A DNA stretch of 64,000 bases, from the NCBI GenBank assembly GCA_010093815.1, contig ML996566.1, one strand, 5' to 3'. The notes beneath the pieces are model-generated. The model did no database searches, was not told the DNA's origin, and was given only the letters and a program-made list of their open reading frames with translations. This DNA comes from Pseudovirgaria hyperparasitica. Taxonomy: Eukaryota. The position numbers and the translations under genes were made by a program. Shown in pieces: positions 1 to 21,687 of the stretch. Numbering within the stretch: position 1 is the stretch's first letter; every line of letters starts with the position of its first letter.

Positions 1-470
1 ATATATATATAGCTTATATTATTATAGAGATTCTAGTAGTCTATATAGATAGTACTCTATTAAAATTAGAGTATAAGACTATTTTTAATATTAATATCTC
101 TTTATTAATAGAGAGAGAGAAAATATCTTTTATCTTTCTTAGTAGACCTATAGTAGAATTCTAAGAAGAGTATTATTCTAAAGTTTTATATAAGTATAGC
201 TATTATTAATAGCTATATATAGATTATCTTTTATCTAGAATCTAGTAGTCTATAGAGATAGTACCTTATTAAATTAAAAGTATTTAAACTTTAATACCTC
301 TTATAGATAGAACTAGAAGAAATATTCTTTATCTTTCTTAATAAATCTATAGTAGAATTCTATAAAGGGTATTATTCTAAAATTTTAAGAGAGTATAGCT
401 ATTACTAATAGCTATATATAGCTTATCTTATATAAAAAGTAGTAGTATTCTATATAAAGTTAACTAGTAT
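1..470. repeat. Degenerate ~200-bp tandem repeat (about 2.3 copies)
   Basis: 'tatctttctta..ctatagtagaattcta..gtattattctaaa..gtatagctatta.taatagctatatatag' at ~131-222 recurs at ~330-421. 'ctagtagtctata.agatagtac' occurs at ~33 and ~242. Confidence 0.7.
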
Positions 471-807
471 AGACTCTAAATTTAGTACTAAGCTATTTAT
501 ATACTATTTATATCTTATAAGTATAAATAGGGAGTTAATAATATATATATAGTCTATTCACGCCCTATTAATAAGTAAGTAAATACCTAGTATATAGCTA
601 CCTAATTAACTAGGGATATACCGGTCCTAGAGGGGTATAAATAATATACTAACTAGTAGACTAAACTATCTCTCCTATATACTCGACTATAAATCTAATA
701 TCTAAGGAGGTATAGAGATAGATAGAAGTTAATGTATAAACCGTAATAATAGACTAGAGAATAGTACCTAACTTACTATACGATTATATATATCGCGTCT
801 AGTCTAA

Positions 808-1183
808 AATAATAATGATTACTACCACAAGGTAATAATGAAAATCACTACTATAAGATAATAAGGATTACTACTACTACGGTAGTAATTATCATCACCA
901 CGACGGGGCTTATTCATAGTATGGTAGTTATCTACCCGGCACTAAGGGCATAGATATAAAGGGAGCTATCAACTAAGGAATTAAACTATCCTTCGTAAAT
1001 AACCTATAATAGGTTAAATAGGCGGATTCTCTTTAAAATCGTTAATTATAAAGGGTGTATAATCCATAACCTAATAGCGTGCGTTAAGTCTAGTCACGAA
1101 GGCCTATTAGGGGAGGGAGGGTAATGTACACGATAATAATAATAACTATTACTACGGAATAATAATAATTATTACCACGATGG
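808..1183. repeat. Two short arrays of ~24-bp semi-palindromic units near the left end of the element
   Basis: 808-908 has about 4 units such as ggtaataatgaaaatcactac and ggtagtaattatcatcacc. 1132-1183 has about 2 units. Both arrays end in ccacga(c/t)ggg. Confidence 0.6.
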
Positions 1184-1399
1184 GTGGTTAGGGAAGCCTA
1201 GTATCAAGAAATAGTTTCCTATGAGCCCGGTAGAAACAGGTCGGATAACGCTCACTTATAAGCGGTCCGCTTGTAGCTTAACCCTACGCTACTAAAGTTA
1301 AGACTATTATATGGTTTATTATATGCTATTCTAGACGACATATCTAGAAGGTTTACCGTTCTATGTACGCCGACGTACGGACCTATAAGAGTAGCGTTT

Positions 1400-3584
1400 G
1401 TAGTATATTAAATCTTAGGGTATTTAAAGGTTATAGAAGCGTCTAGAATCGGCGATTCTAGGTGCTTATTTATATTAAGTGATGAAGTTCGTAGATACGT
1501 ACGAAAATATAAAGAACTAAGAATTAATAAGACGGCTGAATGCCCACTCTTTTAGTATTACGGTCTAGCTATTAGTCTACGGCTATAGTATTATAGTTAT
1601 GGGCCTACCCTAGTACTAGATTATAATTTACTAATAACTACTTAAATCTTATACGCATGTCCGCACTTAAGAAAAACCCAACCCTTTAACTACTTAAGTC
1701 CATGTCAATATTATTAGGGTCGGTCGAATCTACCAATAAGGGCGGCGGGAAATCTAGGTTAGATCCAGGGAACGCTGTATCATAGTAAAGTTCTTAAACT
1801 ACGTGTTCGTCCTTAAAAGGGCCATAATTAGCAAGATACTATACCTAGGTAGTAAGCAGCCGGTCTTAGTTAATAATAATGCCACTATTAGGCATACTAG
1901 GCTATGTATCGATCGTTGGCTGTTTAGATAGATCTAAGATCCGCGACCTAGAATCACCCTTACCATCCGATACGATAGCATCAGTGCCCTTAGGAGATAT
2001 ATACGATAACGTGGTAGTAATAGTCGGTATAGTTAGCGTAATTAAAGGAAAAACAGGAGGAGGGTTAAGGTCCGTAGAAGGTCCTAGAATCGGCGATTCC
2101 ACACGTTCCTTAGAAATAGTACTAGAGTCTACGAGGGGGTCTAGGGGGTTTATCCATATAGTATTATCGGGCACATTATCTAAAACCTTAGAGGCGTCTA
2201 TAATCGCCAATTCTAGTGCCTCCTCTAGTATCTCATTACTAAGTTTAACGCGCTTAACGGCCTTACTTAAATCGCTATACGACGCTATACGCTTCTTCCT
2301 TATAGTTACTTCGGCTATAGAAGACTTTTCGGCGGTATCAGCTGGCGGCTTCATACGACGTAATAAATCCTCTTCGTCACTCTCGTCGACTTCCTTAGAC
2401 GGGTTAAGGTCGGGATCGTTATACTTTAGCTTATCCCGAACTTACTATGTGGCGAGCTAATACGTAAAGCTAATGTTAGACCAATAATCATAGAAAATTA
2501 GACGACCGAGCGACTCCCTAAGTTAGCAAAGTACGGCGAGTTATCGCTCCTAATAATTAGTAGAAGTCTCGAATCTAGGTTCTTTATATACGGGCTAGGC
2601 GAGCCGAAGACAAAGACCCTCTACGAGAATTTTAGGGCTCCACGTAAGTCTCTCGAGCCGCTTATAGGGTGGAATCAAACGGTAGTATTCCTTAGAGCTA
2701 TAGAAGTATAGATCGATGTAGATATTAGGTCTATAGCCGCCCGCTCTAGCGCCACCTAGTATATATATAATCTTCGCGATAAAAGTAAATCTAGTATAGA
2801 GCTTGCCTTAATTCTCGAGACGCGAAATTCTCTCCGCTATAGCTAACCAGAACTACATAACGTAGTAGTATCTAACCGAGCGGTAGATAATAGGTTTACC
2901 TATTACTAGTCGATCAATAAAGAAAGCTATCGCCTAAGGTCGTAGACACCTACTAGGAAGCTTTGGGTCGTTAGAGATTATAAAGTTACTATCGTTTTTT
3001 TTGCGCTTTGGCGCTTTGGCCTTTTTTATAGCTGCGGCTATAACTAGAGTAGTGCTAGTCGGCTTTACGGTATCGGTTTAGTTTACCTTTAATCTTTTCG
3101 ATGGCGTTCTAACTACTTTCCAGACTTTAGATTTTAACGGTATTCGCGGTAGTAGCAAGTTAGAGGCATCGGGTTCGGAATCCGGATTATTAGGAAGTTC
3201 GCCATCTATAGGCGGAGGTATAGAACCTAAATCATTAGTATTATCTTCGGGTTCCTTTACCGAAGATAGTTCCGTAGTAGAGTATAGCGTTTCTATAGTC
3301 GGCTCTTTTACTACTATACTATTCTTAAGTAGCGGTGCGGTCTTAGACGTTTTACCGGTCTTACTTATAATAGAATCGGCGGTATTTTTAGTCTTAGAAC
3401 CCTTCTTCTTCTTCTTCGCGGGGGATAGTTTATTAGTTACTAGAGGACGGGCTACCACGGCTCGACCATATATAACGTTATCCCTAATTATATCCTCAAC
3501 GAAACGTGTACGGTTAGTATAAACTTCCTAAGATAGAGCTAACTTAATACTAGCGGCGCGAGCCGCATGTACACGAGGTGTCAT
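1400..3584 (-). pseudogene. RIP-degraded orphan gene (Lys/Pro/Ser-rich, unknown function); 3' end uncertain
   Basis: ATG at 3584 (MTPRVHAARAA...) is in frame with ORF 3078-3458, which has a KKKKK basic patch. Coding-like sequence continues through ORF 1902-2354, probably across an intron near 2450-2500. Confidence 0.5.
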
Positions 3585-3614
3585 CGGTATATATTAGATA
3601 GGTAGTTCTACGGT

Positions 3615-3739
3615 AGACGGTTAGTATAGAACATATATATCTTAAGAAGGGCCTGGAATCGTCGATCGTAGACGGTTATAGGGAACATATATATCTTAAG
3701 AGGGGTCTAGAATCGTCGATCCTAGACGGTTATAGGGAA
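3615..3739. repeat. 54-bp tandem repeat (about 2.3 copies) containing the 19-bp palindrome
   Basis: agacggtta..g.aacatatatatcttaaga.ggg.ct(g/a)gaatcgtcgatc.t is repeated. The palindrome copies start at 3653 and 3707, 54 bp apart. Confidence 0.85.
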
Positions 3740-3879
3740 AGACTATAGAGTATATATAATAACGAATGCGCGGGTATTGGAATCGCTAATCCCAAGGATC
3801 ACTAAAGCCGGGATTTAATATACCTAGAAACTTAATAGCGCGCGTTTCGATCGACGGGAATACAATACTAAAGGATATT

Positions 3880-4556
3880 AGTAGATGATAGTAATTCGTA
3901 TGATTAGAAACCCACTAGACAATAGGTATAATATTAAGTATATCCTCCGCCAATAGCACGACGAGTAAGATATCAAATGGTATTTTATCATTATTAGAGT
4001 CCTCGAAAGCCATTCGTATACCGAGAAGGGTAGAATAGGCTCCGGCGTCTATAGCCCATCTATACTTCGATATTCTAAGGATAGGATAAAGAATCCGAGC
4101 GACGCTACTAACATCCGGGTCCTAATGATTAACCGTAGTTTCGACGATGCTTTTATACAAACCTCTTAGAACGTTACAACGTTTTTTTATATCCGACTTC
4201 GTCTTTACACATGTTAGTATAGCCACGTGTATAATGATTTTTATATTAAGATTATATGGCTCCATTACTAGAATTTCCTCAGATTCCAAAACCTTATAAT
4301 CCATGAGGGCGGCCACGAGTTCCGGACCGGCTCCTTTACGGATAACTACGTTAATACCACCGAAACGCTTAGCATCCAATTACCTCTACGTAGCGTTCAC
4401 CAAACAGACGTCCTTCTCTAGTATCTATATAATATTACCGACCACGAACTTTACGCTATTCATACGTGACGGTATTAGTTTTTTATAAGATTAATAGAAA
4501 CGATCGTTCCCTACTAGATTGTTCAGGTCTTAAAGTATCTATTAGGCATAGCATAT
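3880..4556 (-). pseudogene. RIP-degraded orphan gene
   Basis: ORF 4122-4379 extends in both directions through isolated TAG/TAA stops as protein-like sequence (...SRMNSVKFVVG... and ...DPDVSSVARILYP...RWAIDAGAYS...). Confidence 0.4.
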
Positions 4557-5399
4557 GGATCTAGAAGTTTTAGCCGGTTCCGAAGGTCTAGTATCTTCCA
4601 CGGGTGGCGGAGCTAATTATACCGCCTTCCCTTTTCCTTTGCTTAGCTTAGTCAGAAGGCTCTAATCGCCTACCATTTTATTAAACCTATATAATCTATT
4701 TAGAGGCGTCTATGAATTACGATTACTAATAAGATAAACGAACGAATTATAAGACTTATTAACGTATACAAGAGTAAGTAAGTTAATATAGAAGAGAAAA
4801 AATTATAAGGTGGTATATATTCATATACCTTCGTGCAAATACTAAGCTAGTCTTATTTAGGTAGTAACATTATAAAAGTGAATAGAGGTTAATGAACCGG
4901 ATACAATATAGATAAGTAGTAAAGTAAAGTAATACTAAGTAAATGAAATGAACCCTCCCTTACGTCGCGTAAGTCGGAATAACGTAATACTAGTTCGAAG
5001 CCTATACTTACGTATACTAAGATGTTACTAGAAGTAAAAGGCTGTCGGCGCTCAACGTTTCCAGACGCCTCTAGTACAGAGTAGAACCACGTTTTAAAGG
5101 TATAGAAAACGAGTATAGGAATACTTAACGGAGCGTATAAGACAGTATTAGAAATTATAATAATATTTAACTAGGCGTCGATTATGAAAGTAAGGAGATA
5201 TAATAAGCCATAAGGACGACCATCCTTATATAGACTATTAAAGGAAAGATACTAGTAGCCACGAACACAATAAAATAACCAGTAGAATATAAATACACGC
5301 TATTAAAGAAAAGTACCAACCATAGACGCGACTAGAAACGCCGATTCCAATCCCTCCTAGAAGATAGTTAAGCCTTACCATTATCTCCACCTATGTTTA

Positions 5400-8300
5400 T
5401 TAGTATCTCATCTATTATAAACTACTCTACTATATAAGTAGTCTAGTCCTTATTAACGAATCGTTCGGTAGCGTGTTCTATTAGGAAGAGGTCTTTATAG
5501 TCTTCGATTAACTATATTATACGGATCGTAGGCTCTAATATAGATCTTAATAATATTATTTTCTCGCTGGCTTCTCGTAGTAAATGGATCCTATCTCTAC
5601 TATCTACCTCGTCCTTACCATAACTATAGGCACTACGCTTGGTAGGGTCCTTATCTAGGCGGTTATTAGGGCGGCGCATAGTATTACTAATAATGTTAAA
5701 TGTACTAGTAGCCCTCTCCGTTAGATTAGTAACACCTAGCCCCTCGCTTTGGTTAATAACGATACCACGGTTGAATATTAGGAGGCGTTTTATAACTTTA
5801 AGCACGGGAATAGCCGTGGATTCCGGTTTATATAGCTTCTTAAACTCCGGATCGTCTTCATAGATAATTAGACCGAAATCATGGTATACATCTCTAATTA
5901 TAGGATACTAGCCCTTAAGGATAGACGGAATAATAATATCGAGAGTAGTGTCGAGGGTGCCGTCCACGAGACTAGATAGAGTAGTAAACATCTTAGGTAA
6001 TGCTCGGCGAGTCATGGCCATGGACATTTTAGATGCCCATGTGTTTAGCATGTAGTACTTAGAAAGCAGGGTCGGTAAGAGCTATTTAAGTCGAAATATG
6101 CGACCTAAGAGCTGCCGTAGAAGAGCGAGATTAGCTGGATAAGAAAAGAAATGAACATTTCTATTCGCCTTCTATAAATTAAAACTAACCCCTATAATTC
6201 CGTATATATTAACGAACCAATCGATCCGGGAGGGAACTCTATTAATGTCGTCCTAATGGGTATTATCGCCGTCTAAGAACGCACTAGGATTAGCGATTCT
6301 AGGCGCCTCTAGTAGGTCGTCCTTATTACCGGCAATGTCGTTAGGCGTGGTCTTATTAAAGGTAGAGTCTATCTTCTAGTTGAATAGTCTATACTTTTAT
6401 TATCTAGTTAGCGCGTCGTCTTCGGTAAAGACACGTCCGACGTACTTAAAGCCTATTAGCCGTAACATATAATATACTAACTCACGCTTAATAGAATATT
6501 ACACCCATACGATGCCCTTCTCCTGGTACTTAAAGTACTACGTTATAGCTTATATAGCGAGTACTACGAGCCGAGGGGACCAGTTAAATAGAATACCTAG
6601 TAGTGCCACTAGCACGTTCTCTACTTCGTTAACTAGCTTAGTAAGTCCACTCTTAGGATGGCTTCGATCACGAGCTTAGGCGATATTTAGTAGGAAAGCG
6701 TATATCTAACGCGGGCTTACGTTCTTAGAGCCAGGACGAGGGAATTTTAGCTTCTATTCATTATCTTTCCTTAACGCTACTATGTCCCTACGCATGAAAA
6801 AGTGTGAATACCTAATATAGATAATAGTAGATATTAGTACTAAGTTCCGCTGTATGCGGAGTTCAGGCTTAATTCCGAGGGTCGGTGAGGATTCGGCTAA
6901 ATAAGCTTCTTTTGGGTCTCCTTACTAATCTTATCGTACTTAGCCTACACCTCTAGTAGATACGCTACTTTAATCTATACCCTTTCGGCCCGCGGAATAT
7001 AGTTACGGATTAAAGTAGCATTATTATCGCTATACCGTAAGTCGTTCGTGCGGCGAAGTATAAATACTCCGTATATTATACTTAAGTACTAGCCTTATAC
7101 TAGCTCTAATGGCGGCTTAGGATCATTACGGCCGGAACCTAGGTACTAGTACTTAAAGGCCGGAGAAGTTAGATATATACCTAGGACGCGATCTAGTTTT
7201 TCCTACGAAACGTCCGGATATAGTCTTACTATTATCGATAGAAACTTATATAGGTTAGACTTCGCCTTGAATGGCGGCTGTATACCGGAAATACCGTTAA
7301 AATAATCGTTAAGGGATGCGCTCTATTATATAACTTTAAGAAGACCCTATATATTACTAGTAAAGTTATAGACGGGAGTACTAGTCACGAGGACGTAGTA
7401 TTTAATATTAAGCTCGTAGATGGACCGGTTAGTCGTAGAGTTAATATTCCGGAAGCCGTATACTTCGTTAGCTACCGTATAGTCGAAGCACTAAGCGAGG
7501 TTCCAAGGGGCATCATATAGAAAATACTACTTCTCTATATATTTCATTTCTACTAATGCGACGGCGTCCTAATTTCTAGATTTAATGTTCTAGAACTCCG
7601 CGTACCCTCATATTTTCTCTCTCTACCTAGTAAGGCTATAACGGGCGTTAAACGTTGCGTAGGACATTAAGATAATAGTACGGGCGTTAATCTCCTCCGG
7701 TCTAAAGTACTAACTCTTCTATATTAAGATACCTACTAAACGCGTAGTACTAGTAGCTGATTTCCCGACCCTACTATTACCGTAACTAGTAATGACACGG
7801 AAGAGCGAGGAAAAGTCCGTAATCTACTCGGCGGTTTAGGTAAGAAGATTTACGGGTACTAATAGTAGGGCGGGCTTCGGAGAAGATACTAGAATACCCT
7901 TCTCGCGATTAGTGATGCGCTCGTTAATTAACTACATTTTAGTTAGATATATATAGGCGCGTCTAGAATCGGCGATTCTAGAGGCCACTAGGGGAAGGAA
8001 CTTACATGTAGCTAGTGCGCTAAAAGTGTAAATGTTTTACCTAGTCCGACACCATCTACTAATACTACACCCCGTGAAACTAAACTATCCATGCTCTTTC
8101 GGAGCTACTAAGCTCCTATAAGTTACTACTAATATAGAGTAACGCTAGGATTTATATTAAGAATCTAAGGTTTTCGGGTACTAGTAACTCGGAGACCCAC
8201 CGCGGCTATAACATAGTCTTATGGTTGGGCGGCGCCGTTATTACTCTAGTTATTTAACCAATCCTATAGTTTACTTCTCTTCTCGCTACCCGACTTTAAC

Positions 8301-9853
8301 TAATCCATAATTAGTACTATATTACTAAGATCCGTGTTAATGCGTGCGGTGATTACCGCCTTATTATTATTTACTTAAATAACCTCGTTAGTTTTAATCT
8401 CGGAGATCTTTTAAGTACCGCTTAAGCCCTTTATAAGATTCTTAATAGTAAGGTAAGAGTAGTACGGACACGTTTCTAGTTTAAGATAATCCGGATTAAC
8501 GACGTTACGATCCTTATAAGTTACTATAAGCATGGCCTAGAGCTCTTCTTTGGAGGGGAGACTCTCGAGATATAATCTAGCGAACACACGCCGATCGCCT
8601 ATATTAATGCCCTCGTCTTCGACTATAAATTCTAGATTATTATAGGTATCTATTAATACTCCCGATGGATTTAGACCGTGTTTCTATATATTAGTCCACG
8701 CTTTAGTATGGTACTCGGGTAATTTTTTCCTTAGTGCCTTTATAGGCTTTAAGGAACGTTTTAGTTTTACTAGGGTAGCTATAGGTCCTTCTTTTATAGT
8801 AGTATCTAGTATAGCTAGTGCGTCTAGCATGGGTGCGTCGAGGAGCGAGTTCGGATCTATTACTTAGATGTCTTCTATCGGGTCCTAATCTATAGTATCG
8901 CTAGTATTCTTACTAAGTTCCCTATTCCGGTTAGTGGTAGAGTTACCATCGGCGGCTTAGTGTTAATCTAAACGCCTTCTAGCTTTTTTCTTAGAAGGGC
9001 CTATAATCGTCGATCCTAGACGGGCCTATAGAGTGATTAGTAGATGAGTAGGGGGAACCTAGTTAGTAGGAACTTTCCGAGGCATTATAGACATCTACCT
9101 CGCGTTAGTATAGATAATTTTCATACGAAAGTTATCCTCGTATTCTTGCCCTTAGTTACGGGCATGGCGTCGGTATTTAAGTATATCGTTAAATAGAAGA
9201 TATTTATCGTTCTCCGATATACGCATTCGCGAAAGAGGATTCGTACGATTAGAAGATAGCTTAAGATCTATCCGGAGAATAAGAGACGCGCGCCACTAGT
9301 AATCTTCCTATTTACTACGACTAGCGGCTATTACTATAAGGTAATGGGCACGGTCTTCTTTAATAAGTTCTATAGCTAAAGTAAACTAGCTAAACGGATG
9401 CGAACCTTCTAGAATCCACGGGTTAAAGAACTCTACATAGTATTCATTAAGTAAGGCGTTAACTTTAGGATCCTAGAATAAAATGGCTGCTTTAACCACG
9501 CTAATTCCGAGGTTAGAGGTAATCTTACTAAGGCGACGGTCCTTTTCTAGCCTAGGTTCCTTTTTACGCTCCTATCTAGCCTCTTTTCCCGGCTTTGGCT
9601 CGATAGATGCGCCTTTTCCTACTTCGCCTGCTTCCTCCTCTATAGTAGCGACCTTAAGAAATCGCTCTATGGCTTTAGAATTATAGTCTATTAAGCTACT
9701 ACCTACGATAAGAGCGGATAAGGTGGTATATTTCTTCTATAACGCTGCTCTGGTTTCGCGAATCTCTTTAGTAGCTATATCTAAAAACGGATCGAGAAAA
9801 TTATTATCTTCTTTCTCTTATGCTTAAATATTAACTAGAAGAAAAGGAGCCAT
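5400..9853 (-). pseudogene. SNF2/SWI2-family helicase-like ATPase, RIP-inactivated (the N-terminal part may be a separate gene)
   Basis: Motifs in order: Walker A RGVVL(V/A)DGVGLGKT (~8030-8075); GTAAGT..CTAAC..TAG intron ~7932-8005; Ia KPALLLVPVNLL (~7850); motif II ANEVYGFRN = A[D]E[AH]GFRN (~7460); III VLVT(S/G)TPVYN (~7380); EKGIVWV (~6510); V GVSFNL*KAN (~6175); VI RQLLGRIFRL (~6100). Confidence 0.85.
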
Positions 9854-10350
9854 GATCTCTAGAAGGGTCTGTAAACGGCGATCGGTGGGTTAAATATATA
9901 TATATCGAAAAAATGAGATTACGTAAGAAAATAGTAAAATGATATAGGAGAGATGGAGAGAGTTAATGGAAATAATATATATAAATATATATTTTGGGTC
10001 TTATCACGTGTTATTACATAACCTTCTTATGTTACGTTATAACGTGTTACAAGTGAAGTGAATTAACCTATCGGTTTTATTAGAAATTCCAGCCCCTACT
10101 CTAGAAATCGCTATTTATAGGGTGCCCTATAGTTAAGGTCGTAGATTCTAGTTCTTATACTCTTATACTAAATGCGTAACTACGTTACTAGGAGAATTCT
10201 TTTCACGTCTCCCTCTTTATATTCTATTTAATATAGGGCGACGTGGATTAAGAGTACTAACTTATGGACGTTATCTATAGGCATTAAGATACTCTATAGA
10301 CTTTATATACTTCTAGACTTAAACTATAATAACTATAAATTCTACCGACC

Positions 10351-13300
10351 CTATCGACTAACATCTATAACTAGTGGAGTACCCTAATTAAATTCTAGAA
10401 TAGCATTCGTAATTTCATACGCCCCCTCTCGCCGCTTACGCTATAGCTAACGGGCTAATTCACTAGAGTCCCATGCACCTTCTCTTATTACCATTGGTAG
10501 TTGGCCCGTTTTCGAAATTCCAAACCCTTCTAACCGGGTAGCCTATTATCTAGATAGGTGGACTACTATTACGCTAAGAGCTCGATATAAACCAAATTTC
10601 TATATATACTTAATATTTCCCGGGAGCCGACGGAACCCTAGTTATCCCTCCAGTCTAGGCTCCCACCACGGATATAGAATTTATAGCTAGTAATAGGTGA
10701 AGTAGTACACGTGTTTGGGCATGATATTACTCTTTCGCATTTGGTCGGCTAGTACACGCTTAACCATGTCTATAAGTCGTCTATTATCTAAGTAGTACGT
10801 AGTATAGACTCCACTATTAGTACCGCATACATCGTAATAACTGGCCTACCATCGTCTCTACTCGGATAATAACTAGACGAGACTTATATATTATCTATTT
10901 TATAGACGACGTTCTTATGCTACCAGTTTCATAGACTATTATTATATAAACATTCGTTGATTATAAGTGTCCTCGCCCACGTAATCTTCGTCTAGACACG
11001 CACTAGGAAGTTCTAATACCCGCCCTTTCGCTGGTCTTCCTGCCTCGTCTATACTATTACCATGTACACGTGCTTATTTCATCTTATTCCACGTATAAGG
11101 CGGCTGGCGCGACGGTTAATTGGTCTAGGGTAGGTCGGGTTAACTATTTAAGGAACCCATAGGTGAGCTACTAGGAAGGTCTAGGATCGCCGATTCTAGA
11201 TCCTCCTAGAGGGTCTCTAAATGTAGTAGGAATGTTAATAGGGTAGGATCGCATACATCGTACTTCTCTTTAACCCCGTTATAGCTCTTTCTACTAAACG
11301 ACCCGTCGAGATACTCGTCTAGGAACACCCTACGACACCCTATCTAGTTTATATAAGTAAGTATCATCGCGTTCTTAGTAGTGGCTTCTTCTATCTTTAC
11401 GAAGATAGCGAGGCTTCTCGTTAGGTAGTCGCGACCGGCCCGGCCGCTTTCTTATATATAGTCTAGGAATGAAGAAGGAGCGCCTAAGTGTATCACGACG
11501 CGAATAGTAGCTAGGTTAACACCTAGGCCGAGAGCGTTTATAGTAACTATGATACCTTCTTCTTCGGCGATAAATCCGTTAAGGACCTACTCCTTAGCTA
11601 TACTCTCTTAATAGTACGCATTATAACCAAGCTCCCCTACGAGGCTAATAGCTTACGTGACCATAGGCGTAAAGACGAGACATCTACCGGTAATGCCCTA
11701 TCTAATACGTCGCACGTATTCCGCTTAACTACGGGTACCTCGAGCCTTCTTAGGTAGGCTCCTAAGCGTATACGTAATATTAGGCCGAGTTATAGCTTCG
11801 CGGTGGATGAATACATCTCTAGCGTTTATATATATGGCTTTCTATAGCCCTACTTTATCATCGGGTGGTAGGGTTATACTTAGGAGTATAATCTACACCT
11901 CTAGGTTAACTATTATTTAGATGTCGCGAAAGGCCGGCCGGAACTAGTTATTATTAATGATATAGTGGTACTTATCGATAATCACACGGTCGAGTAGTCC
12001 TAGGCTATTTATATGGTTTATAAACTATATGAACGGTTCGCCTTTTATAGACTCGGGCGTAATAATAATAATAGATATCCCGTAAGGGGGGTGCGTAGGG
12101 TCGAATGCTTCTATAGTAATACTACTATTATAATAACGGCGGATAAGGTTATCTCGAAGGGCCTTTAGCGGGATAATAACTAGTATTACTCTATCTAGTA
12201 CTATTAACGCAGCTAATATGAAAGGTAGACTTTTACCTAAGGTAGTCGGCTATATAACTAGTATCGGACTACGGCCTTCGACTAGCCCGGTAAATACCTT
12301 TTCTTATTAGGGTTATATTCTAGCGTTTTCATTACGGAGTACGACCTTAATAGTCTTATACGGGTCCTTCTCCCGGAGTGCAGCCTAATGGTAAGCCCGT
12401 GCTTATAAAATTCGTGTCTAGCTAGGTGTAACCTTATCGAACATAGATACCCCGATCTCGTGCTACTATACGCGACTAATCTAGAAGTACCTCTCTATTA
12501 CCGTCTTTACCGCACTAAACGGGCTACTTATATCACGACTATACGCGATCTAGATAATCTTTATACTATGACTAGCTTACTTATTAAGGATAGCGGTTAG
12601 ACTATTATCTCGGGTACCCGGATTCTAGTCCTCGTTCTATAGACTATTCTTATTAGCCTCGTCTATATAGTTAATCTCGTACTTCTAAAGCTTACGCTTT
12701 ATAATTGTAATCACGACTTAACGATAGTCTATAATACCCATGTTAACTACTCCTATACTAAGATGTATCTATTCCCTTATCGCATGGCTTATACGCTCGC
12801 TAGTCTAGTACGGTAATAGCTATATATGTATAGGGACGACTATCTATGTTAGATCCATGAATCTCTCGAGTTATTCCTTCCACGGGATAACTAACCAAAG
12901 ATACCATATTAGAATATTATATACGACCGGCGGTAGATATCGAAGAATTAGGCGGATATCTCCTTTACGTATATACCCTTTATGGTACTTTATTATAATG
13001 TAAAGCTTATTACTATAAAGAATAATATTACGTATATCACCCTATCGCGTGTTACGGTACCGTATACTTAGGATTTCTAGTCCGCGTGTAGGCTGTCTAG
13101 CTATTATATAGATAAGAATAAGTAGCTAACTAAGAAAGACTCGAATCTATTCGAGCTAGTCTTATGCTTTTTGTGTATCTAACTCTCCTCTGGTAAAGAA
13201 CGCTAACTGTATATTCTAGTCCTTTTTAACTCGCCTTCTAAACCATGAGGACTACTCCTAGAGGCACGCTAACTAAAGGAAGCTATACCTGATTATGTTA

Positions 13301-14991
13301 TCAGCCGTATTATCCGTAAGTAACTACCATAGAATTACTAGTACTCCCTCTATAGAAGATAGTAGAAGAATATTAGTATATAATGTTCGCGCTATTCGAT
13401 TTATTAAGCTAGAGACTATCCCTCTAAATGCATTTATTAGAATTATATGTGCATTATACGTAAGTGTATTATTAACCTACTGTATCTTTACGTCTATGGC
13501 TATGTTACCCACGATTTTAAGACCGTAAGCTCTAAGTTATATCTACTATCTAACTATACCGCGACTACCGCGGAGGAGATACTAGTTAATAAATGGTGAG
13601 AGATATCTAAGGATATCTATAGTACCACCCGCTTACTTATAGAAGACTTCCTAGATGGCCTACTTAAGGATAATAAGGCGGGAGAACTTAATAAGTACTA
13701 ATAGAGTAGACGTATAGTTCTATGGTGAAAGGAAGCCCCCGTTTCGATCTATATATAGTAGGCCGGATAATGGGACTAGTGCGGCCTCGAATAAGTATAT
13801 ATATAGCGTCTATTATAGTAATATAATGATAAGCTATATATAAAGGTAGGCGATGCGAGAAAGAGGGCGGGTTTAGATACTAAACACCTCGTATAGTTTT
13901 ACCCGACGTGTTTCCAGATCCCACTTACTAAGATTACCTTCTACTCTATAATAGTTATTAGTTATACTCGTCTCGGGTTTAGAGTCGGAGCTACTATTAC
14001 TCTCGCCGGATGGCTATTCCGTAGTAATATAGTCTAGAAGCCGAGTAATACACGCCTTAGTCTTAGCGTTAAAGACTAAAGCTAGGAGGTAGTAGAGATT
14101 CTAGTACGCTTAGATGGCCCCGATAATAAGACGCTAAAGATGCTTCGAGTAATCGCGGAATATTTTCTAGTTCTAATAACGTGCGAGAGGTCGCTATAGC
14201 CTAGGCTCTATTATAGAACGCGCTACTTCTAGGCATAGTAGTCTATTATAAGCGCCTACTATCTTATAGGCTTAGTAGAATAGAACTCTTAGACTAGATA
14301 ATACTATCTTTAGCGGCCCTTCGGTAGATATCTCTAGGATATTAGTAAGTGCGAGGATATCCATGCCTTAGAAGTAGTTAATAAATTTTATGCGTTCTAG
14401 CCATGGATTAACTTTGTCGATAGCGCCGGTTTATACTATATAACCTTCATCTTTAAGGACGTTCTACTAATTTAACTAGAGCTAATCGAGTGTGGTATTA
14501 ATTAGTATATGAGTGTATATAGTGGTACGTGTTATAATCGGGATGAGGCGGTTCAACCGGCCTATATTATATAGGTATTAGTATGGTATATTATCTCTAT
14601 ATCCACGTATCTTATCATCCGCTCTAGGTGGAGCCCCCCTACGCCTATTAAAGAACGCTACATGTTCGTTTTTAATATGTGATTTAAGATTCTTTAAAAG
14701 GCTAAGAACTAATCCGTAGTTCTCGATAATATATTAGAACCCTCTCTTAACCGGAATATATCTTATAGGCCGTGATAGGGCAGCGGGTATTCGAAGGTCG
14801 TCGATTATAGTAGCGGTATAACTAAGCGAGTAAATATAGCTTTTAATAATCTTATGATACTTCGGTCTTATTCCTCGGTATTCTTAAAGGAGGTGGCGGT
14901 CTAGCGCGGATAGGAGGATGGCGCGCTTATAATCTCGATAGATAATTACTCCGGTATCAAGGTCGACGACTAGTAGTAAATCTATAGACAT
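10351..14991 (-). pseudogene. DUF3505/telomere-linked-helicase-type protein: Zn-finger-like N-terminus + tyrosine-recombinase-like core + RecQ-like DExH helicase + Cys-rich C-terminus, RIP-inactivated
   Basis: One frame at all points sampled from ATG 14991. In order: II[C]RD[C]KRAIL..LDRHL; NPWLER; [G]QP[A]RG[P]EILSIRYRN..RNI..KYHKG..RYLP..WYLWLVIP; DYR[Q]; [D]K[Q]A[G]HS..AY[G]R; SPILVI*PTT.GKSLPF; IITPES; LDRVIID[EC]H; ALGLGVN; Y.[Q]ESGRAGRD; CRRVFLDEYLDG; [C]DVC. Brackets are RIP reversions. Confidence 0.9.
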
Positions 14992-15099
14992 CTATATATA
15001 TTCGTATAGTATTAGTAGATTAGCGTCGGGAGTAGACTATGATATATATAATTATATTCCTATAGATAGGTGTGGAAACGGCGATTCTAGACGGCTCTA

Positions 15100-16830
15100 G
15101 AGTAAGGAGTTTTTAGGTCCTTTGGTTTTCGACGGCCGTGCCGTAGGAAATCAATAGCTACTACTAGCCCCGATCTTCGGCTAAGGTATTCTACTATTAG
15201 TATAGTCGCTACTAAATTAGTGTATTTTATTCTCTAATCTACCTTATCATTATCTATAGTACGCATGTCCTATGGCGTACTTAGCCCTAGGCTATGGTCT
15301 TATAGATTAATTAGATTTATAAACTACTCTAGCGCTATATTCATAATATTTTCTAAGGTTATTCTCTCGATCGGGAACTACCTAGGTAGCGTAATGTCTC
15401 CATTTAAAATCTAATATAAATATAGCTTAACACCATAATAAAGTCGTCTAAGCCATAGATAACATCGGTCTACAAGGCCTAGGAAGTCCTCTAGTATACT
15501 AACCCTTATCTTCTAGAAGAAAGAGTCCGTAATTTCGGGTGGTAGTAGAACGAATAACCCGTCGCTAAACCTCTCGCGGATTAACGCCTAGTGCGCGCTA
15601 TAACTTAACCAATCGTTCATTTATTTCTACTGTCTTATCCGCTTAAAGGCCTCCCCTTACTATATATATATATTAATATCTAGGTCCTACGGTTATTCTA
15701 GACTTGGCGTATAATCTCCTATGAGTTGATTAATACGGGCATATAGGCGAGCCTTTATAATTAACCGGATGCCTTGCCTAGTACTAAGGGTGAATGTGCG
15801 GTCTGTTTTCAGTGCCTCCTTAGTAGCGTTTATAGCTTTATATATATCCGCGAGTGCTAGGCGACGTCTAATCCCGATAAGACGCGATGTGTATACTAGC
15901 TTAACGATCTTAAAGTAGAGTATACTAGCCTAGTCTATGAATATACGTACTAAGCGTTCCCTAGTCAACGTCGTATCCCTAATAATAATCTATAGGGGAT
16001 TAAGGCTATAAGACGCTATATCTACCGTCTTACTATCTCGCTATTCTTATATAAGTAATCTAAAGTAAAGTAGCGTTAACGGTAAACCAATCTCTAATGC
16101 GCGATTAAGAAGTTATCTAACTATGTTTATATCTTTAGGGAAGTATTATAATATGCCTATCTAATAAAGATAACTTACATTTATATAGAGCTATACTTTA
16201 TATTTATTCCGTGACGACGGGCTATCGGGGTTAGTAAATGACTCTATAACCTCCCTAAGCATAGCCTCATACTTTACTCTTAACTTAGCCCGGATTTTAT
16301 TACTTACTCTCGTGGTCGTTAGCGGAGTTCTCGTAGTTAACTATTCGTTCTAGTTAGATGTATCGTTACGGCGCCACTTTCTAGGGGGATTTATAGACTA
16401 ACGCTCTTCTTCGTCGTCCTCTTCTCGCTCTTAATCAGTATTATAGACTATTATCTCTAGTTATGCTAGTACTATACGAAGAGCTACCGTGGTGCTAGAA
16501 GTTATATAAGATTATTAAGAGGGTAGGGGAGATGTCGGAGGCGGCGGGCATGTATTAGGAACGAAATCGTCTTCTTTATTATTATTAGGTAAGTCGTTAT
16601 TCATATTAGTAACGTGTAAATAGGCTAGAATCTATTGCTCGTTTAGCTAACGAGCCGCTACCTCTAGTAATCGTACGATAAATAGTGGCGGGCTAGGAAA
16701 CGATAACGGTTGGAAGAAGACGGCTTAAGCTCTATCGCTCCCGCCGATAGGGAAAAGTTTAAATATAATGTCCTATGCTTAACGTATACTATCTATATTA
16801 GGGAGCGGTACTAAGGGGGGTGCTATAGCT
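15100..16830 (-). pseudogene. RIP-degraded orphan gene (~550 codons), unknown function
   Basis: Long protein-like frame broken by TAA/TAG: AVFFQPLSFPSPP, Pro-rich and acidic linkers (EREEDDEEER), and RERF(S/G)DGLFVLLPPEI near 15550. Confidence 0.5.
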
Positions 16831-19800
16831 TATAAAGTTCGTAAGTAGTAGAATAGATTAGAATCGGCGATCCTAGAGGTGTCTTAGAGTACACGATTCT
16901 ATAAGGATTACTAAGGTCCTTAGACGTATGCGTAGGTCGGCGTGTAGTATACCTAGGTACCGATCGCGCACGGTTGGGAAAATCAAAGTAAAAATCGCGA
17001 AAAATACGTAGTTTTTATGTATACTCTTCGCTACCCCCTCCGTGAAAATAATAATTATAAGTTAGCTAGATATAACTTTCGACCATGCGATTTCTTAATA
17101 TATAAAAATTATTCGGATGTAGGCGTGGGAAGGGCTGCCTTTCGACTCTACCTTACGGTGTCTTTTAACTACCTAGTTTTCCTACTAAGAGTCGTGCATG
17201 GTTACCGCCTAGGCCCGTATAATGTTCTTTCGTATATCGAAAGAACGGCTCCTAATTGTTAGCGTTCATTCGCTTATAAAAAAGGATCACTTGTACGTAG
17301 TTATATACTATGGTGCGGCTTCGGCCCTTTAGCGCCTAGGACATAGCCCGGCCATCAGCGTCGGTGCGTTTTAGGTACCGCTGCTCGAGGCATGCGCGCG
17401 TCGCGCTATAGTAGCGCACGGCGTTTAAGCGTGCTAATGCCGGTAGGGTAGGCCCTATGGTACTTCCGCACGGCCCGTGGTGTATACTTTACGCACAAGC
17501 CTATATCCTTAGATAGAAAAATGTAACATGTCTACATTCATAGCGATTCTCGGCCAGAACGTGACTAGGTAACTATAGAATAATTTAGAATAACTACGCA
17601 TTCTAGTCGGAGGTTAGTATTATAACCGACCGACGCTTTCACCTATAAAAGAATAATAAATCTTAGTCCCTAATGAGCCTTTAAGGCGAAAGACATCTAT
17701 TAGTTTATACCTAGCTATCTAGGACTTCTATTACTTATTACTTTTCCTTAACGATTTCTCCCTGCTTTAAATAACCCTAGAAGTAGAAGTACTAATTACC
17801 GCGATAGTTATATCTAATTCCTTCCGCTAGTTCTTATTTAGTATAGTATAGAGCTTTATAATATAAGTCTCTAGCCTTTCGTTCTAATACTATAAATTCT
17901 ATATAGCGTGCCTTATAGCTATAAACTTCTCTATAGAAATCTATAGGGCGGCGGGACCTAGAATAGAGAGAGATAGACTAGCGCGGGCACGCTAAGAATT
18001 ATATAAATTAGCGAAAAGATTTAACGATCGGTATAGAACTATATACCTTTAGTATAGAAACTTCTAGATTAGAGCTATCTTCTCTAAATTTATAGCTCTT
18101 TAGTATATATAAGAAAGGAACCTTAGCCTTTTTACTAGAACCTTTTCTAGAAATTTTAATATTACTAGTATATAGAAAGAAGTCTAAAGTAGTAGAGATT
18201 TTAGTACTATTATAGAGATTAATATATATTAGTAAGAATCTATAATGATTTAAGAAAATAATATTATCTAGTAATTATAGTAATAATAGCTATAGTAGAT
18301 TCTAATAAATCCTTATAGATCTTATTAGAATCGTACTTCTAGGTATAACTCTTACCTTAGATATATAGCTCGTAGAAAGCCTTCTCTAAGGCGTTATAAT
18401 CGGTAGTACTACGCTCCTTATTAGTAGGGGTTACTAGAGGCCTAGTAGTAATCTATACTAATATAAGTAAATCTACGTAAAGTTCTTTAAACTTACTTAA
18501 ATATCTATAAGTAATAATACTTCTTAGTTATATAAGTACTATATATTATAGATTTAGTACTACTATAAGTAATATATAATAGAAAGCGATAACTATAATA
18601 ATATATAGCTAGATTATTAGAGCCTGGCCTAGGTTAGGGTAGATTAATAGCTTTTAATATATCGGTAATATATACGAGATAGAGATTATTTAAAGGCGTC
18701 TATTTCTATACTAATTACTTTAGAGCGTTAAGATTTCGGGAAGCTATATTATAATTATTACTAATTTATATAGATTATTATAAATTATACTATTACTAGC
18801 TAAGGATGGTATAAAAATTAGTAAATTACGTAAATTATACTAAATTATAGTAAATCTATATAAATCTATATCTATAAGAATTAGGTAATATATCTAATAA
18901 TCTAAAAAACTCTATAAAGAGTTAAGAAGTTTTTTAAAGAAAGGAATATTTCTAAGAAAAGATTTTAATATAGGTAGTACCTAGACTTACCTAATTATAT
19001 TACGTGATACGCTAGGCCTAATTAGGTAATCTTATCTATATAAGAAGTTAGGATAGATAAAATCTAGTTTATTAGGAAAATACTTATATAAATCTTAGAT
19101 TAGTAAATATTAGTAAATATCTAAGACGAAGTATAGAGAATAACTAAGGTCTTATAAGACTTAGAATAGGGATATAGAGATAGATAATAATCTAGGTTAC
19201 TAAGGGTAGCTTCCTAGAGAGAAGGGATAATTATTAGAACTTAGTCTTAGGTAGAACCTAATCTATATATACCTTAGCTAATAGAGTTAGGAGATAACGT
19301 AAAGGGCGGTAAATAGTTATATACTAGATAGATTAGCGTCCCTTTATATATATACTCTTAGATTTCTACTAAAAGAGTTCGGTAGTAATTCGTTCTATAA
19401 TAGAATACACCCTATTATTCTATCTAACTACACTACTATCTAATAACCCTATTCTTATATATAGAGTGGTTTACGAAGATAAGAACTTTCTATTATTTAC
19501 TATTTTATATTTAAATAGATAGCGTGAATACTTACTTTAGAGTCTAAGTAGAAGTAATTAAACTATAATAAACCTTCTCTAATAAGGATGCGGCTTATCT
19601 CTAAAGTAGTCTATTATATAGAGTATTCTAGCTTTTCTAAAGGTAAAGGTACTTAGAGAGCTTAGAAGAGTATAAGTAGATTTATAATAAGTATTAATAG
19701 AGTATAAATAGTAACTAGCTAGTAGGCGAGTAAAGTAGTAATTATATTAGTATAAGTTTAAATTAATTACTATAGAACTATCTCTAGAGATCGGGTCTAA

Positions 19801-21687
19801 AGAGTCTATATAGTTCTACTAAGGTCCTCTAATTAGAATACTTATTCTAAGTATTTAGTATATTACTTAGAATACTAATATTCTATTTCTAATTATCTAG
19901 TAGACTACTTAGAATATCTATTCTAAGTATCTATAATTAGTTCTCTCTATAGATGCCTACTTTATCCTTAGATTATTATCTAAGGCTATCTATTATATTA
20001 TAGATACCTCTTCTATATATTATACTATCTCTTATACCACTCGTACTAGAGTCTATATATCCCGCTATGGCCCTAGCTAGTAATTTATTATAGTATATAA
20101 CTATTTACTACTATTTATACTATCTTCTAACTATATTAGCTAAGATATATATAGATTAGATTATATCTAAGACTAAGTTCTAATATAGAGTATTATAGAG
20201 TACTTACTATTATCTATAGTAATAATAACTTTAGACTCTTCTACTATAGGTTTAAAGAGTAGAGTAATAAGTACCTTATATAGTTATAGATAAGTAGATA
20301 TAAAAGTATAGTTAAGGCTTTAGTAATTACTATTAGACTATAGTATTATTAACTACTCTTACTATAATACTAGGTACTATATAAGGTAATAGACTTAGAT
20401 ATATTTATAGAAGAATATAGAGAGATAGAAGTATATATAGAGTAGAAGTAAAAAAAAAATTTTAGTACCTTTTTAATTATAGATTTAATTATTACTTATT
20501 AATAGAATAATAGTCGTTATATTCTATTAAAACTCGAGTATATATTAAGGACTAGGTTTGGATATATATAGATATAAATTTTTTTTCTTTTTTTTTTAGA
20601 TTTATTACCTAAGGAGGTAAATCCCTAGTACTTTTATATTATTATCTATACTTAAGATAATAGTAAGAAGTAGAAGAATTTAATATATAGTAGTTTATTT
20701 AGAGACTAAATAGAAGAGCTAATATCTACTATATCTAATAGTACTTTAGAGTTATTAATAGCGTCTACCATTAAGAGATATTTCTAAGGTTAATTTTTAT
20801 ATTTACTTCTTCTCGATTTATTAAGATAATATATTATAGTATTTAGCTACTATACTCTTAGAAGGGTAAAGATTAATAGTCTAGTAGAGAAGCTAATAAT
20901 ATAGATATAAGAGGGGGGGTATAGTTTTTATTATAGTATATAGAGAACTAACTAAAATAAGGTAAGAGAACGTCTATATACGCCTAATTACTAACCGCTC
21001 TTGTTATCCTTAAGAGGCGGTTGGGAACAACAATTATCCGCCGATTCGAGTAGGAGCCACTCATATGGTCTCCTGCCTCGACAGCGTGTCGATACTAAAT
21101 TCATCACGCAAAGAGCAGCACCACGACGAAAACGGGAAATACTTGTTTAGTGTGCATGTTTAAACTACTTCCATGTGTCTATTTGCCGTTTCCATATTTT
21201 TACTGTCTGCAACCAAACATCCCAAGCTATTGTTTGCGGTGAAAGTAATCTCCAAGGGTGTTCGTTGCTTTAAAGCCGTGGGCCGCATTCAAACATTCCT
21301 TGTCGTTATTCCGCAACTAATATCACATCTTGCAGCCTAGCTTGAAACAGAATAGAGCACCATGACTACAACGAAAGCCGGGAAACGACGAGTCTTGGGG
21401 AAGATGAAATGCAGTCAGCCTGCACCTCGGGCTTCTGTTGATTGTGACAAGCAATCTTTCACTTGAACAGTGTTGAAACAAAGCAAACAGGTAGTGAAAT
21501 TAATGGTGGGAGCAATAGAGGAGAACACCGGATGTAACTAAGGGATATCAAGTGGAAGGTAATCCTACCATGTATGTATATAAAGGGACTATCCCCATGT
21601 AGAGATTCAAAAACTAACTTGTTCTCCTATCACTGACACACACAAAAACAAGACCAGCCTCAATCTGACGAAGCCACGTTATTCGGC

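Follow-up and report, generated by a model that had tools for sequence, protein, structure and literature searches.

A gene block degraded by repeat-induced point mutation (RIP) in Pseudovirgaria hyperparasitica is probably a copy of a telomere-linked helicase repeat with additional genes

Results

Five decayed, co-oriented genes form a multicopy block

We analyzed a 64,000-nucleotide stretch of contig ML996566.1 of the fungus Pseudovirgaria hyperparasitica (GenBank assembly GCA_010093815.1), hereafter the window, and found that the minus strand at ~1.4-16.6 kb carries five co-oriented pseudogenes, readable when stop codons are translated as X, whose largest single-frame member appears to have encoded a telomere-linked helicase (TLH). 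A first-pass annotation made from the DNA letters had placed five close-packed minus-strand genes here, and our analysis recovered all of them at nearly the same positions. The small gene at 4.55-3.9 kb, which that annotation regarded as an orphan, is instead a Macro-domain gene (PF01661, 28.2 bits against a cut-off of 22). The five genes are as follows.

~16604-15090, minus strand: gene1 pseudogene, ~505 codons, 29 stops
14991-10374, minus strand: predicted TLH pseudogene (C2H2, tyrosine-recombinase-like and RecQ-like parts), 1538 codons in a single frame, 96 stops
9853-5371, minus strand: putative SNF2-family ATPase pseudogene, ~1,460 codons over three frames
4676-3921, minus strand: Macro-domain pseudogene, 252 codons, 10 stops
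3584-1461, minus strand: gene5 pseudogene, ~708 codons in a single frame, 24 stops

In the order from gene1 to gene5, the spacers between the genes measure ~100, 520, 695, and 340 bp, and the TLH gene is oriented toward position 1 of the window. None of the five genes is intact, and the entire interval 1-20000 contains only two open reading frames (ORFs) of at least 100 aa. The GC content lies between 0.24 and 0.44 across 1-21 kb, compared with ~0.50 for the remainder of the window.

The decay carries the signature of RIP. The five frames contain 227 stops in 4462 codons, 226 of them TAA or TAG and a single one TGA, and this near-exclusive use of TAA and TAG is what CpA-to-TpA mutation predicts. 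The TpA/ApT ratio of the block is 1.58 and its (CpA+TpG)/(ApC+GpT) ratio 0.37, compared with 0.70 and 1.23, respectively, for the housekeeping genes at 21.6-64 kb. The similar RIP load previously noted for the five genes holds for four of them (TpA/ApT 1.57-1.71, (CpA+TpG)/(ApC+GpT) 0.36-0.37), but not for the Macro gene, which is milder in both indices (1.26 and 0.55).

The block is multicopy in the source sample. In contigs from two public runs (X1 and X2) of one sample, matched at ≥80% identity, summed contig depth over 668-17342 is ~1300-3300, versus 219-340 for single exact-match contigs (4-15x); this corresponds to several copies, perhaps five to ten, an approximate estimate given that summed depth does not equal copy number. 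Up to seven distinct contigs with an alternative base cover one site, and almost all variant places are transitions (1607 of 1636 in X1 and 1548 of 1573 in X2). Both the summed depth and these RIP-type transitions between copies bear out the earlier proposal that the unit was repeated. Repeated DNA does not stop at position 610, where a boundary had been drawn, but continues to position 1 of the window, with a summed depth of 1018 in bin 1-667. With depth raised to position 1 on one side and jumping ~100-fold beyond ~17.3 kb on the other, discrete ends of the unit could not be placed.

That the whole unit is present as several near-copies is indicated by depth, by the variant contigs, and by P0125, a 423-aa "hypothetical protein" of P. 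hyperparasitica encoded on a 147-kb contig. P0125 maps to window positions 4013-3825, 3524-2943, and 2420-1848, with 87-90% identity on two gene5 pieces and 65% on a short Macro piece, and it has Gln at window stop positions. Because the substitutions between P0125 and the window go in both directions, we consider P0125 to be a gene model over another, differently mutated copy. In this model, two gene5 pieces are appended to the C-terminal portion of the Macro pseudogene and the stop-bearing parts are left out, an annotation artefact over a RIP-mutated copy.

The central gene is predicted to be a telomere-linked helicase

Pfam places OrsD/DUF3505, DEAD, and Helicase_C all in one frame of the central gene. 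In the decayed window copy, OrsD reaches an E value of 0.0053, which is below the Pfam cut-off, compared with 1e-13 to 1e-22 for the OrsD regions of the related proteins P0001-3; the window OrsD aligns with these regions column for column, and Tyr stands in place of its finger cysteines, the outcome expected of G-to-A RIP changes. DEAD (E 9e-6) and Helicase_C (E 2e-8) are accompanied by weaker matches to bacterial and eukaryotic RecQ. When stops are read through, the gene matches three intact proteins of 1520-1584 aa that share this architecture, with E values of 1e-96 (the 1584-aa protein), 5e-89, and 4e-79, and it is colinear with its intact relatives from the start codon to the C-terminus. 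The block aligned over the TLH domain retains the motifs QPxRGxE, YHKGY, YLWLV, YR..AI, AxH, and Y.R in the window copy. The parts of the gene are arranged as follows.

~14960-14660, minus strand: C2H2/OrsD part
~13540-12440, minus strand: TLH domain, predicted tyrosine-recombinase fold
~12300-11430, minus strand: RecQ-like helicase part

This architecture is that of the TLHs, which are defined by two C2H2 motifs, a ~250-residue "TLH domain," and a RecQ-like helicase within a 4.7-4.9-kb ORF (10.1101/2024.02.27.582403). In Fusarium oxysporum, 79-92% of chromosome ends carry TLH genes within 6-13-kb regions that are nearly identical to one another (10.1101/2024.02.27.582403), and all 24 subtelomeres of Colletotrichum higginsianum carry 11.3-18.5-kb helicase/DUF3505 repeats (PMC5576322). 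Genes with OrsD, DEAD, and Helicase_C are also described in Fusarium and in RIP-affected Pyrenochaeta subtelomeres (10.1101/721753), Stagonospora nodorum X26 is a RIP-degraded subtelomeric RecQ repeat (PMC3017866), and one Botrytis strain has 14 subtelomeric TLH genes flanked by a 15.5-kb helicase-bearing element (10.1101/2022.03.07.483234). One of the intact relatives recovers 204 clusters at E≤1e-30, most of them on 5-8-kb contigs, as repeats do; the named clusters belong to Alternaria, Pyrenophora, Plenodomus, Didymella, Aspergillus, and Penicillium (Pleosporales and Eurotiales) and to lichen fungi. By its architecture, the published description, and its telomere-adjacent relatives, the central gene is, as judged from sequence, a telomere-linked helicase. 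The first-pass annotation had set the gene set apart from four known kinds of element but could not confirm that it was undescribed. The unit does not represent an undescribed class: the TLH architecture of its core gene already defines published multicopy subtelomeric repeats of 6-18.5 kb.

The TLH domain is predicted to adopt a tyrosine-recombinase fold

In the accessible parts of the TLH literature, no function is assigned to the TLH domain. We modeled this domain twice with AlphaFold, once with 20 sequences (predicted local distance difference test, pLDDT, 71.8) and once as the domain alone with 70 sequences (pLDDT 82.7; predicted template modeling score, pTM, 0.84), and compared both models with 48,161 solved chains using VIA-align, which is independent of Foldseek. 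For both models the best match is the same archaeal Xer chain, with Z 11.7 and a root mean square deviation of 3.3 Å over 171 residues for the first and Z 11.5 and 3.4 Å over 174 residues for the second, followed at Z 9-10 by XerH, XerA, Cre, a mycobacteriophage integrase, and XerD. The top 17 rows for the first model and the top 28 for the second consist entirely of recombinases, topoisomerase IB, or Ndc10, and unrelated proteins appear from Z 4.7 down (second model). Foldseek likewise ranks XerA, XerH, and Cre first, with a probability of 0.99-1.00 and E values of 2e-3 and 5e-3.

Residue conservation points in the same direction. In the 70-sequence alignment, one Arg, one Glu, and a Tyr-His-Lys triplet are invariant, and conservation reaches at least 90% at two more Arg, one His, and one Tyr. 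Along the sequence these residues run R..K..R..H..Y, and the His-to-Tyr distance of nine equals the spacing in Cre (W315, Y324) and lambda Int (H333, Y342), positions that we checked in the phage records. All five residues are still readable in the dead window copy.

12541..13086, minus strand: conserved R (13086-13084), K (12981-12979), R (12723-12721), H (12570-12568), and Y (12543-12541)

The 70-sequence alignment has no conserved His three residues ahead of the second Arg, and the helix bearing the Tyr is modeled with a pLDDT below 50. At the sequence level, Pfam finds neither Phage_integrase nor DUF3435 in P0001-3 at E≤1, a TLH-domain profile finds no recombinase in the PDB, and hhalign of the TLH domain against Cre and lambda Int gives a probability of 0.2%. 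By structural modeling, the prediction that the TLH domain adopts a tyrosine-recombinase fold is well supported, and it agrees with the first-pass view of the large gene as a recombinase-like domain joined to a RecQ-like helicase. A full-text literature search, judged by term counts, found no paper joining TLH or telomere-linked helicase with tyrosine recombinase, and the modeled fold assignment, together with the conserved R, K, R, H, and Y, appears to be new here.

The accompanying genes include a putative SNF2 ATPase and a Macro-domain protein

The SNF2 gene is read in three frame segments, which would correspond to two introns or frameshifts.

9853-7990, minus strand: first SNF2 frame segment
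~7925-6840, minus strand: second SNF2 frame segment
6801-5371, minus strand: third SNF2 frame segment

Motif I (GLGKT) lies near position 8010, and C-lobe-like motifs are visible by eye in the adjoining frames. In Pfam, SNF2-rel_dom scores 22.6 bits (E 6.7e-5), under the cut-off of 24.9, and the C-lobe gives no Helicase_C match; the best PDB match is CHD1L/ALC1 (E 0.017). A word-based search with the 477 C-terminal residues at E≤1e-3 returned nothing, which says little, as RIP leaves few exact words. On these matches, the SNF2 identity of the gene at 9853-5371 is plausible.

The Macro domain is an ADP-ribose-binding/hydrolase fold. The window's Macro match has an E value of 2e-6 and spans profile positions 1-91 of 118, and the gene also has weak PDB matches to the macro domains of PARP15 and MACROD1. 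Gene5 is lysine-rich, acidic, and of low complexity; it matches no Pfam family, and P0125 is the sole relative that HMMER detected for it when 1.84 billion representatives were searched exhaustively. An Atlas search with P0125 yielded nothing usable (scores ≤0.77, model pLDDT 0.39). At E≤1, Pfam likewise assigned no family to gene1, the SNF2 N-terminus, or the upstream frame at 16.8-17.4 kb.

A palindrome recurs throughout the block and is confined to it

Ten copies of an imperfect palindrome of ~37 nt, with the consensus TAGAAGGGTCTAGAATCGGCGATTCTAGACGnTTCTA, lie within 1433..16888.

~1433, 2074, 3643, 3697, 5322, 7953, 8991, 11171, 15063, and 16848, unstranded: palindrome copies

The private palindrome of the first-pass annotation is thus real: the 13-nt core GAATCGGCGATTC has 17 strand-matches with ≤2 mismatches, versus 1.64 expected, a count that none of 100 shuffles reaches, and all matches fall within 1446-16873, with none in the other 47 kb of the window. 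Five copies stand directly 3' of ORF ends (gene1, SNF2, a tandem pair at Macro, and gene5), one stands upstream of gene1, and one coincides with the first SNF2 frame change. The other three are readable in a stop-free frame within the TLH, SNF2 N-terminal, and gene5 ORFs. The copy in gene5 is translated at the same place in P0125, so the palindrome predates the divergence of the copies. For four of the ten copies, RNA hairpin folding is better than for shuffles (z ≤ -2.4), and hairpins at transcript 3' ends or protein-binding sites are candidate roles.

A few TLH relatives are telomere-adjacent, and TLH neighbors vary

We scanned metagenome contigs and obtained 60 loci with TLH relatives, 539 kb in total. 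TTAGGG arrays end three of the 60 (L006, L054, and L055), 3-5.5 kb downstream of the TLH gene. At four loci (L019, L027, L038, and L051), two TLH-like segments lie on one strand; tandem arrays of TLH regions are described for Fusarium in the available TLH literature.

When the three minus frames of the window were compared with these loci (tblastn, E≤1e-5), all 79 matches fell within the TLH, and relaxing the threshold to E<1 added a single match, of 49 aa of SNF2 to L045. Neither the orphan genes nor the Macro gene occurs beside the TLH at any of the 60 loci, and among the 14 loci whose downstream DNA spans 3 kb or more, one (L045) has a downstream SNF2 gene. At L045:763-11067, an SNF2-family gene of ~1,450 codons in four ORF pieces (SNF2-rel_dom E 8e-17) lies 1.4 kb downstream of an intact TLH and shares its strand. 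This is the sole other TLH-SNF2 pairing seen; the L045 SNF2 ORFs match nothing at the other loci, and L045 has no Macro domain. The palindrome core yields scattered single near-matches only, 12 in the 539 kb.

The flanks of the TLH relatives contain 331 ORFs, whose clusters join near-identical loci only, plus the pair L004/L028. Of the 80 flank ORFs of at least 190 aa, 65 were scanned with Pfam and nine of the remaining 15 separately (two as near-identical equivalents), the six outside these scans being overlapping or antisense. The matches (kinase, DDE, gypsy, NLR-TPR, Piwi, permease, and ankyrin) are as diverse as is usual in variable fungal DNA, and the 65 scanned ORFs include no Macro and no SNF2. 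At L008:2858-5968, and also at L010, L011, and L039, which are near-identical contigs, a 1037-aa ORF that matches no Pfam family stands immediately upstream of the TLH in the same orientation and could represent a further lineage-specific passenger of such a unit. The first-pass annotation had looked to co-occurrence of the RecQ, SNF2, and orphan genes in other fungi, and the five-gene set does not recur beside these TLH relatives. Because the neighbors of TLHs are not conserved elsewhere, the five-gene set is lineage-specific, and the TLH literature, as far as it was available, describes the content of TLH regions as varying from species to species.

The block lies between AT-rich repeats and gene-dense DNA

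The following features adjoin the gene array.

1..600, unstranded: AT-rich DNA downstream of the gene array, GC 0.20-0.27, also repeated in the source sample
16605..17560, unstranded: upstream part of the repeat, containing a CpG-rich island

Within the downstream AT-rich DNA, a 199-bp unit at 4-434 is repeated 2.1 times with 80% matches and a GC content of 0.20. The CpG-rich island (17200-17500, GC 0.50-0.58) is embedded in AT-rich DNA; its exact-match contig depth is single-copy-like, and Rfam, tRNA, and Pfam searches found nothing in it. In the same sample, contigs of 2.3-3.3 kb match 17261-17676 only, at ~84%, indicating related pieces in other contexts.

A far more abundant AT-rich repeat starts past ~17.3-17.6 kb. 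Over 17343-20000 (GC 0.24) the summed contig depth is 66,000-280,000, ~100x that of the TLH block, and no protein family is detectable there; the interval could be an AT-rich repeat of very high abundance or else low-complexity DNA that RIP has degraded convergently. Across 1-22000, scans for Rfam families and tRNAs gave no match. From 21600 to 64000, the window is gene-dense, with a GC content of ~0.5 and no RIP signature, and encodes a JmjC/cupin protein, RTP1, PRMT5, a DEAH-box helicase, a MutS homologue, and a ClpB/Hsp78-type AAA ATPase.

Discussion

Our findings suggest, with a probability that we put at roughly 0.6, that the block is one copy, killed by RIP, of a multicopy repeat that contains a TLH and is specific to this lineage. 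Repeats of this kind are known from chromosome ends; the novelty here would be a variant in which SNF2, Macro, and two orphan genes were amplified along with the TLH and a private palindrome recurs. The core gene would have encoded a TLH with two C2H2 fingers, a TLH domain of tyrosine-recombinase fold, and a RecQ-like superfamily 2 (SF2) helicase, and in this lineage the duplicated unit would have taken along an SNF2-family remodeler, a Macro-domain protein, and two proteins without a recognized family. Recombination or break-induced copying from one chromosome end to another may have multiplied such a unit, the mode generally assumed for TLH regions and yeast Y' elements. RIP in sexual cycles would then have destroyed all copies seen, leaving the window copy as inert AT-rich DNA adjoining housekeeping genes. 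While alive, a helicase, a remodeler, and an ADP-ribose reader together would have suited recombination-based maintenance or repair of chromosome ends.

Several observations weigh against this interpretation. The link to the type TLHs of Magnaporthe, S. pombe, and Ustilago goes by architecture, published description, and telomere-adjacent relatives. The extra genes were not found beside the TLH relatives at the 60 loci, and they could stem from another duplicated segment in which a TLH simply happens to lie. Housekeeping genes begin just 4 kb past the block, so that this copy is not shown to be subtelomeric, and TTAGGG/CCCTAA arrays are absent from the window. Finally, the conservation of recombinase-type residues suggests an active mechanism like that of a mobile element, for which our preferred reading has no need.

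In an alternative reading, the block is an autonomous tyrosine-recombinase/helicase transposon, with the TLH protein as recombinase in the "captain" role, SNF2, Macro, and the orphans as cargo or accessory genes, and the palindromes as binding or recombination sites. Both AlphaFold models match tyrosine recombinases before anything else among the 48,161 chains, Foldseek concurs, and the invariant R, E, and YHK, the highly conserved R, R, H, and Y, and the His-to-Tyr spacing of nine, as in Cre and lambda Int, are all in keeping with a recombinase. The sites lox, FRT, and dif consist of inverted arms flanking a short center, and the palindrome, which has inverted arms around a short center, is confined to the unit and older than its copies. 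However, the Foldseek E values of 2e-3 and 5e-3 fall short of our bar of 1e-3, neither the PDB profile, hhalign, nor Pfam provides a sequence-level link to recombinases, and a shared fold is not catalysis: Ndc10, which is also in the match lists, has the fold without the activity. Ten scattered internal sites, some of them in ORFs, are unlike the build of known recombinase elements, no termini or empty sites were seen around the block, and the neighbors of TLHs vary from locus to locus. We regard such a transposon as possible but unlikely, and the self-contained transposon of the first-pass annotation is not demonstrated. A bolder version, in which TLHs in general are working fusions of a tyrosine recombinase and a RecQ-like helicase, and TLH units are unrecognized recombinase-driven elements that home to chromosome ends, carry cargo, and use palindromes as binding or recombination sites, strikes us as rather improbable.

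An ordinary chromosomal gene cluster could also have been segmentally duplicated a few times and then destroyed by RIP, with no special link to telomeres or mobility. RIP strikes any duplicated DNA, the block adjoins housekeeping genes and lacks telomere repeats, TLH-gene neighbors are not conserved, and a precedent exists in X3X3R8 of S. nodorum, a RIP-degraded endogenous cluster with SNF2/Rad5-like helicase genes (PMC3017866). Yet the family of the central gene is characteristically multicopy and telomere-adjacent, the sample holds several copies rather than two, and a private palindrome running through the whole unit is unexpected for a chance cluster of unrelated host genes, which makes this origin quite unlikely in our judgment. 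A dense array of co-oriented genes and hairpins at gene 3' ends are all that recall an integrated virus-like element, which the first-pass annotation had entertained. No capsid, polymerase, integrase, or packaging family is found on either strand, none of 108 pattern matches in 2.9 million viral contigs encodes a TLH relative, and the core gene belongs to a widespread fungal chromosomal family; we consider a viral origin extremely improbable.

A dead TLH-type repeat, our preferred reading, explains why 17 kb of AT-rich, gene-less DNA adjoins core genes. It would also mean that a TLH-type repeat co-amplified a chromatin remodeler and an ADP-ribose-binding protein; this DNA-repair-flavored set of genes could be relevant to the ways in which chromosome ends are served or exploited by such repeats. 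The predicted recombinase-like fold and its residues make it testable whether subtelomeric helicase repeats are domesticated or active mobile elements, and by what mode they spread between ends.

Comparison with known systems

The first-pass annotation had reported neither a Starship captain nor a DDE transposase and had set the block apart from Helitrons, and Pfam searches of both strands of 1-21500 at E≤0.01 agree. They detected no DUF3435 "captain" (PF11917-type), reverse transcriptase, or viral hallmark family, in a search whose sensitivity RIP lowers, no DDE family of Academ or other DDE transposons, and no HUH Rep or Pif1-type helicase of the Helitron kind, the helicases present being RecQ-like and SNF2-like. 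Like Cryptons and Starships, the window unit contains a domain of predicted tyrosine-recombinase fold with conserved R, K, R, H, and Y inside a repeated unit, and a Starship-like arrangement of recombinase plus cargo is conceivable by analogy. Unlike them, it gives no Pfam DUF3435 or Phage_integrase signal, has its recombinase-like domain fused to a RecQ-like helicase, and shows no known terminal repeats, target site, or empty site; its size of 17 kb is also far below that of Starships.

In animal CHD1L/ALC1, an SNF2 ATPase is fused to a macro domain, and the window has SNF2 followed by Macro in the same orientation, but as two genes ~700 bp apart. CHD1L is the best PDB match of both the window SNF2 and the L045 SNF2 (E 4e-6), and these matches span the generic DEAH-box region only; the likeness is a lead rather than a finding. 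Our literature search found no paper combining "macro domain" with RecQ or subtelomeric terms.

The Y' elements of Saccharomyces cerevisiae have a single helicase ORF of a different helicase lineage and are not subject to RIP, and to our knowledge they contain no C2H2 or recombinase-fold domain. What they share with the window unit is that they are helicase-encoding, multicopy subtelomeric repeats, spread between ends by recombination (10.1101/721753, PMC4522978). Closer in lineage, the subtelomeric RecQ repeat X26 and the SNF2/Rad5-like cluster X3X3R8 of S. nodorum are Dothideomycete repeats recognizable only as RIP-mutated remnants; there the RecQ and SNF2 genes form separate repeat families, whereas they stand in one unit in the window (PMC3017866).

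The nearest likeness is to the TLH-containing regions (TLHcr) of F. oxysporum and Magnaporthe oryzae and the DHX_G198-type repeats of C. higginsianum. Like these, the window block is a multicopy unit in the 6-18.5-kb range, built on one ~4.7-kb gene that combines C2H2 (DUF3505/OrsD), a TLH domain, and a RecQ-like helicase, and its copies are RIP-degraded, as in sexual species. The window copy differs from them in being without telomere repeats in or beside the block. It also differs in content, for the unit adds to the repeats, as they are described in the reports available, an SNF2 gene, a Macro gene, and two orphan genes, and it bears a recurrent 37-nt palindrome.

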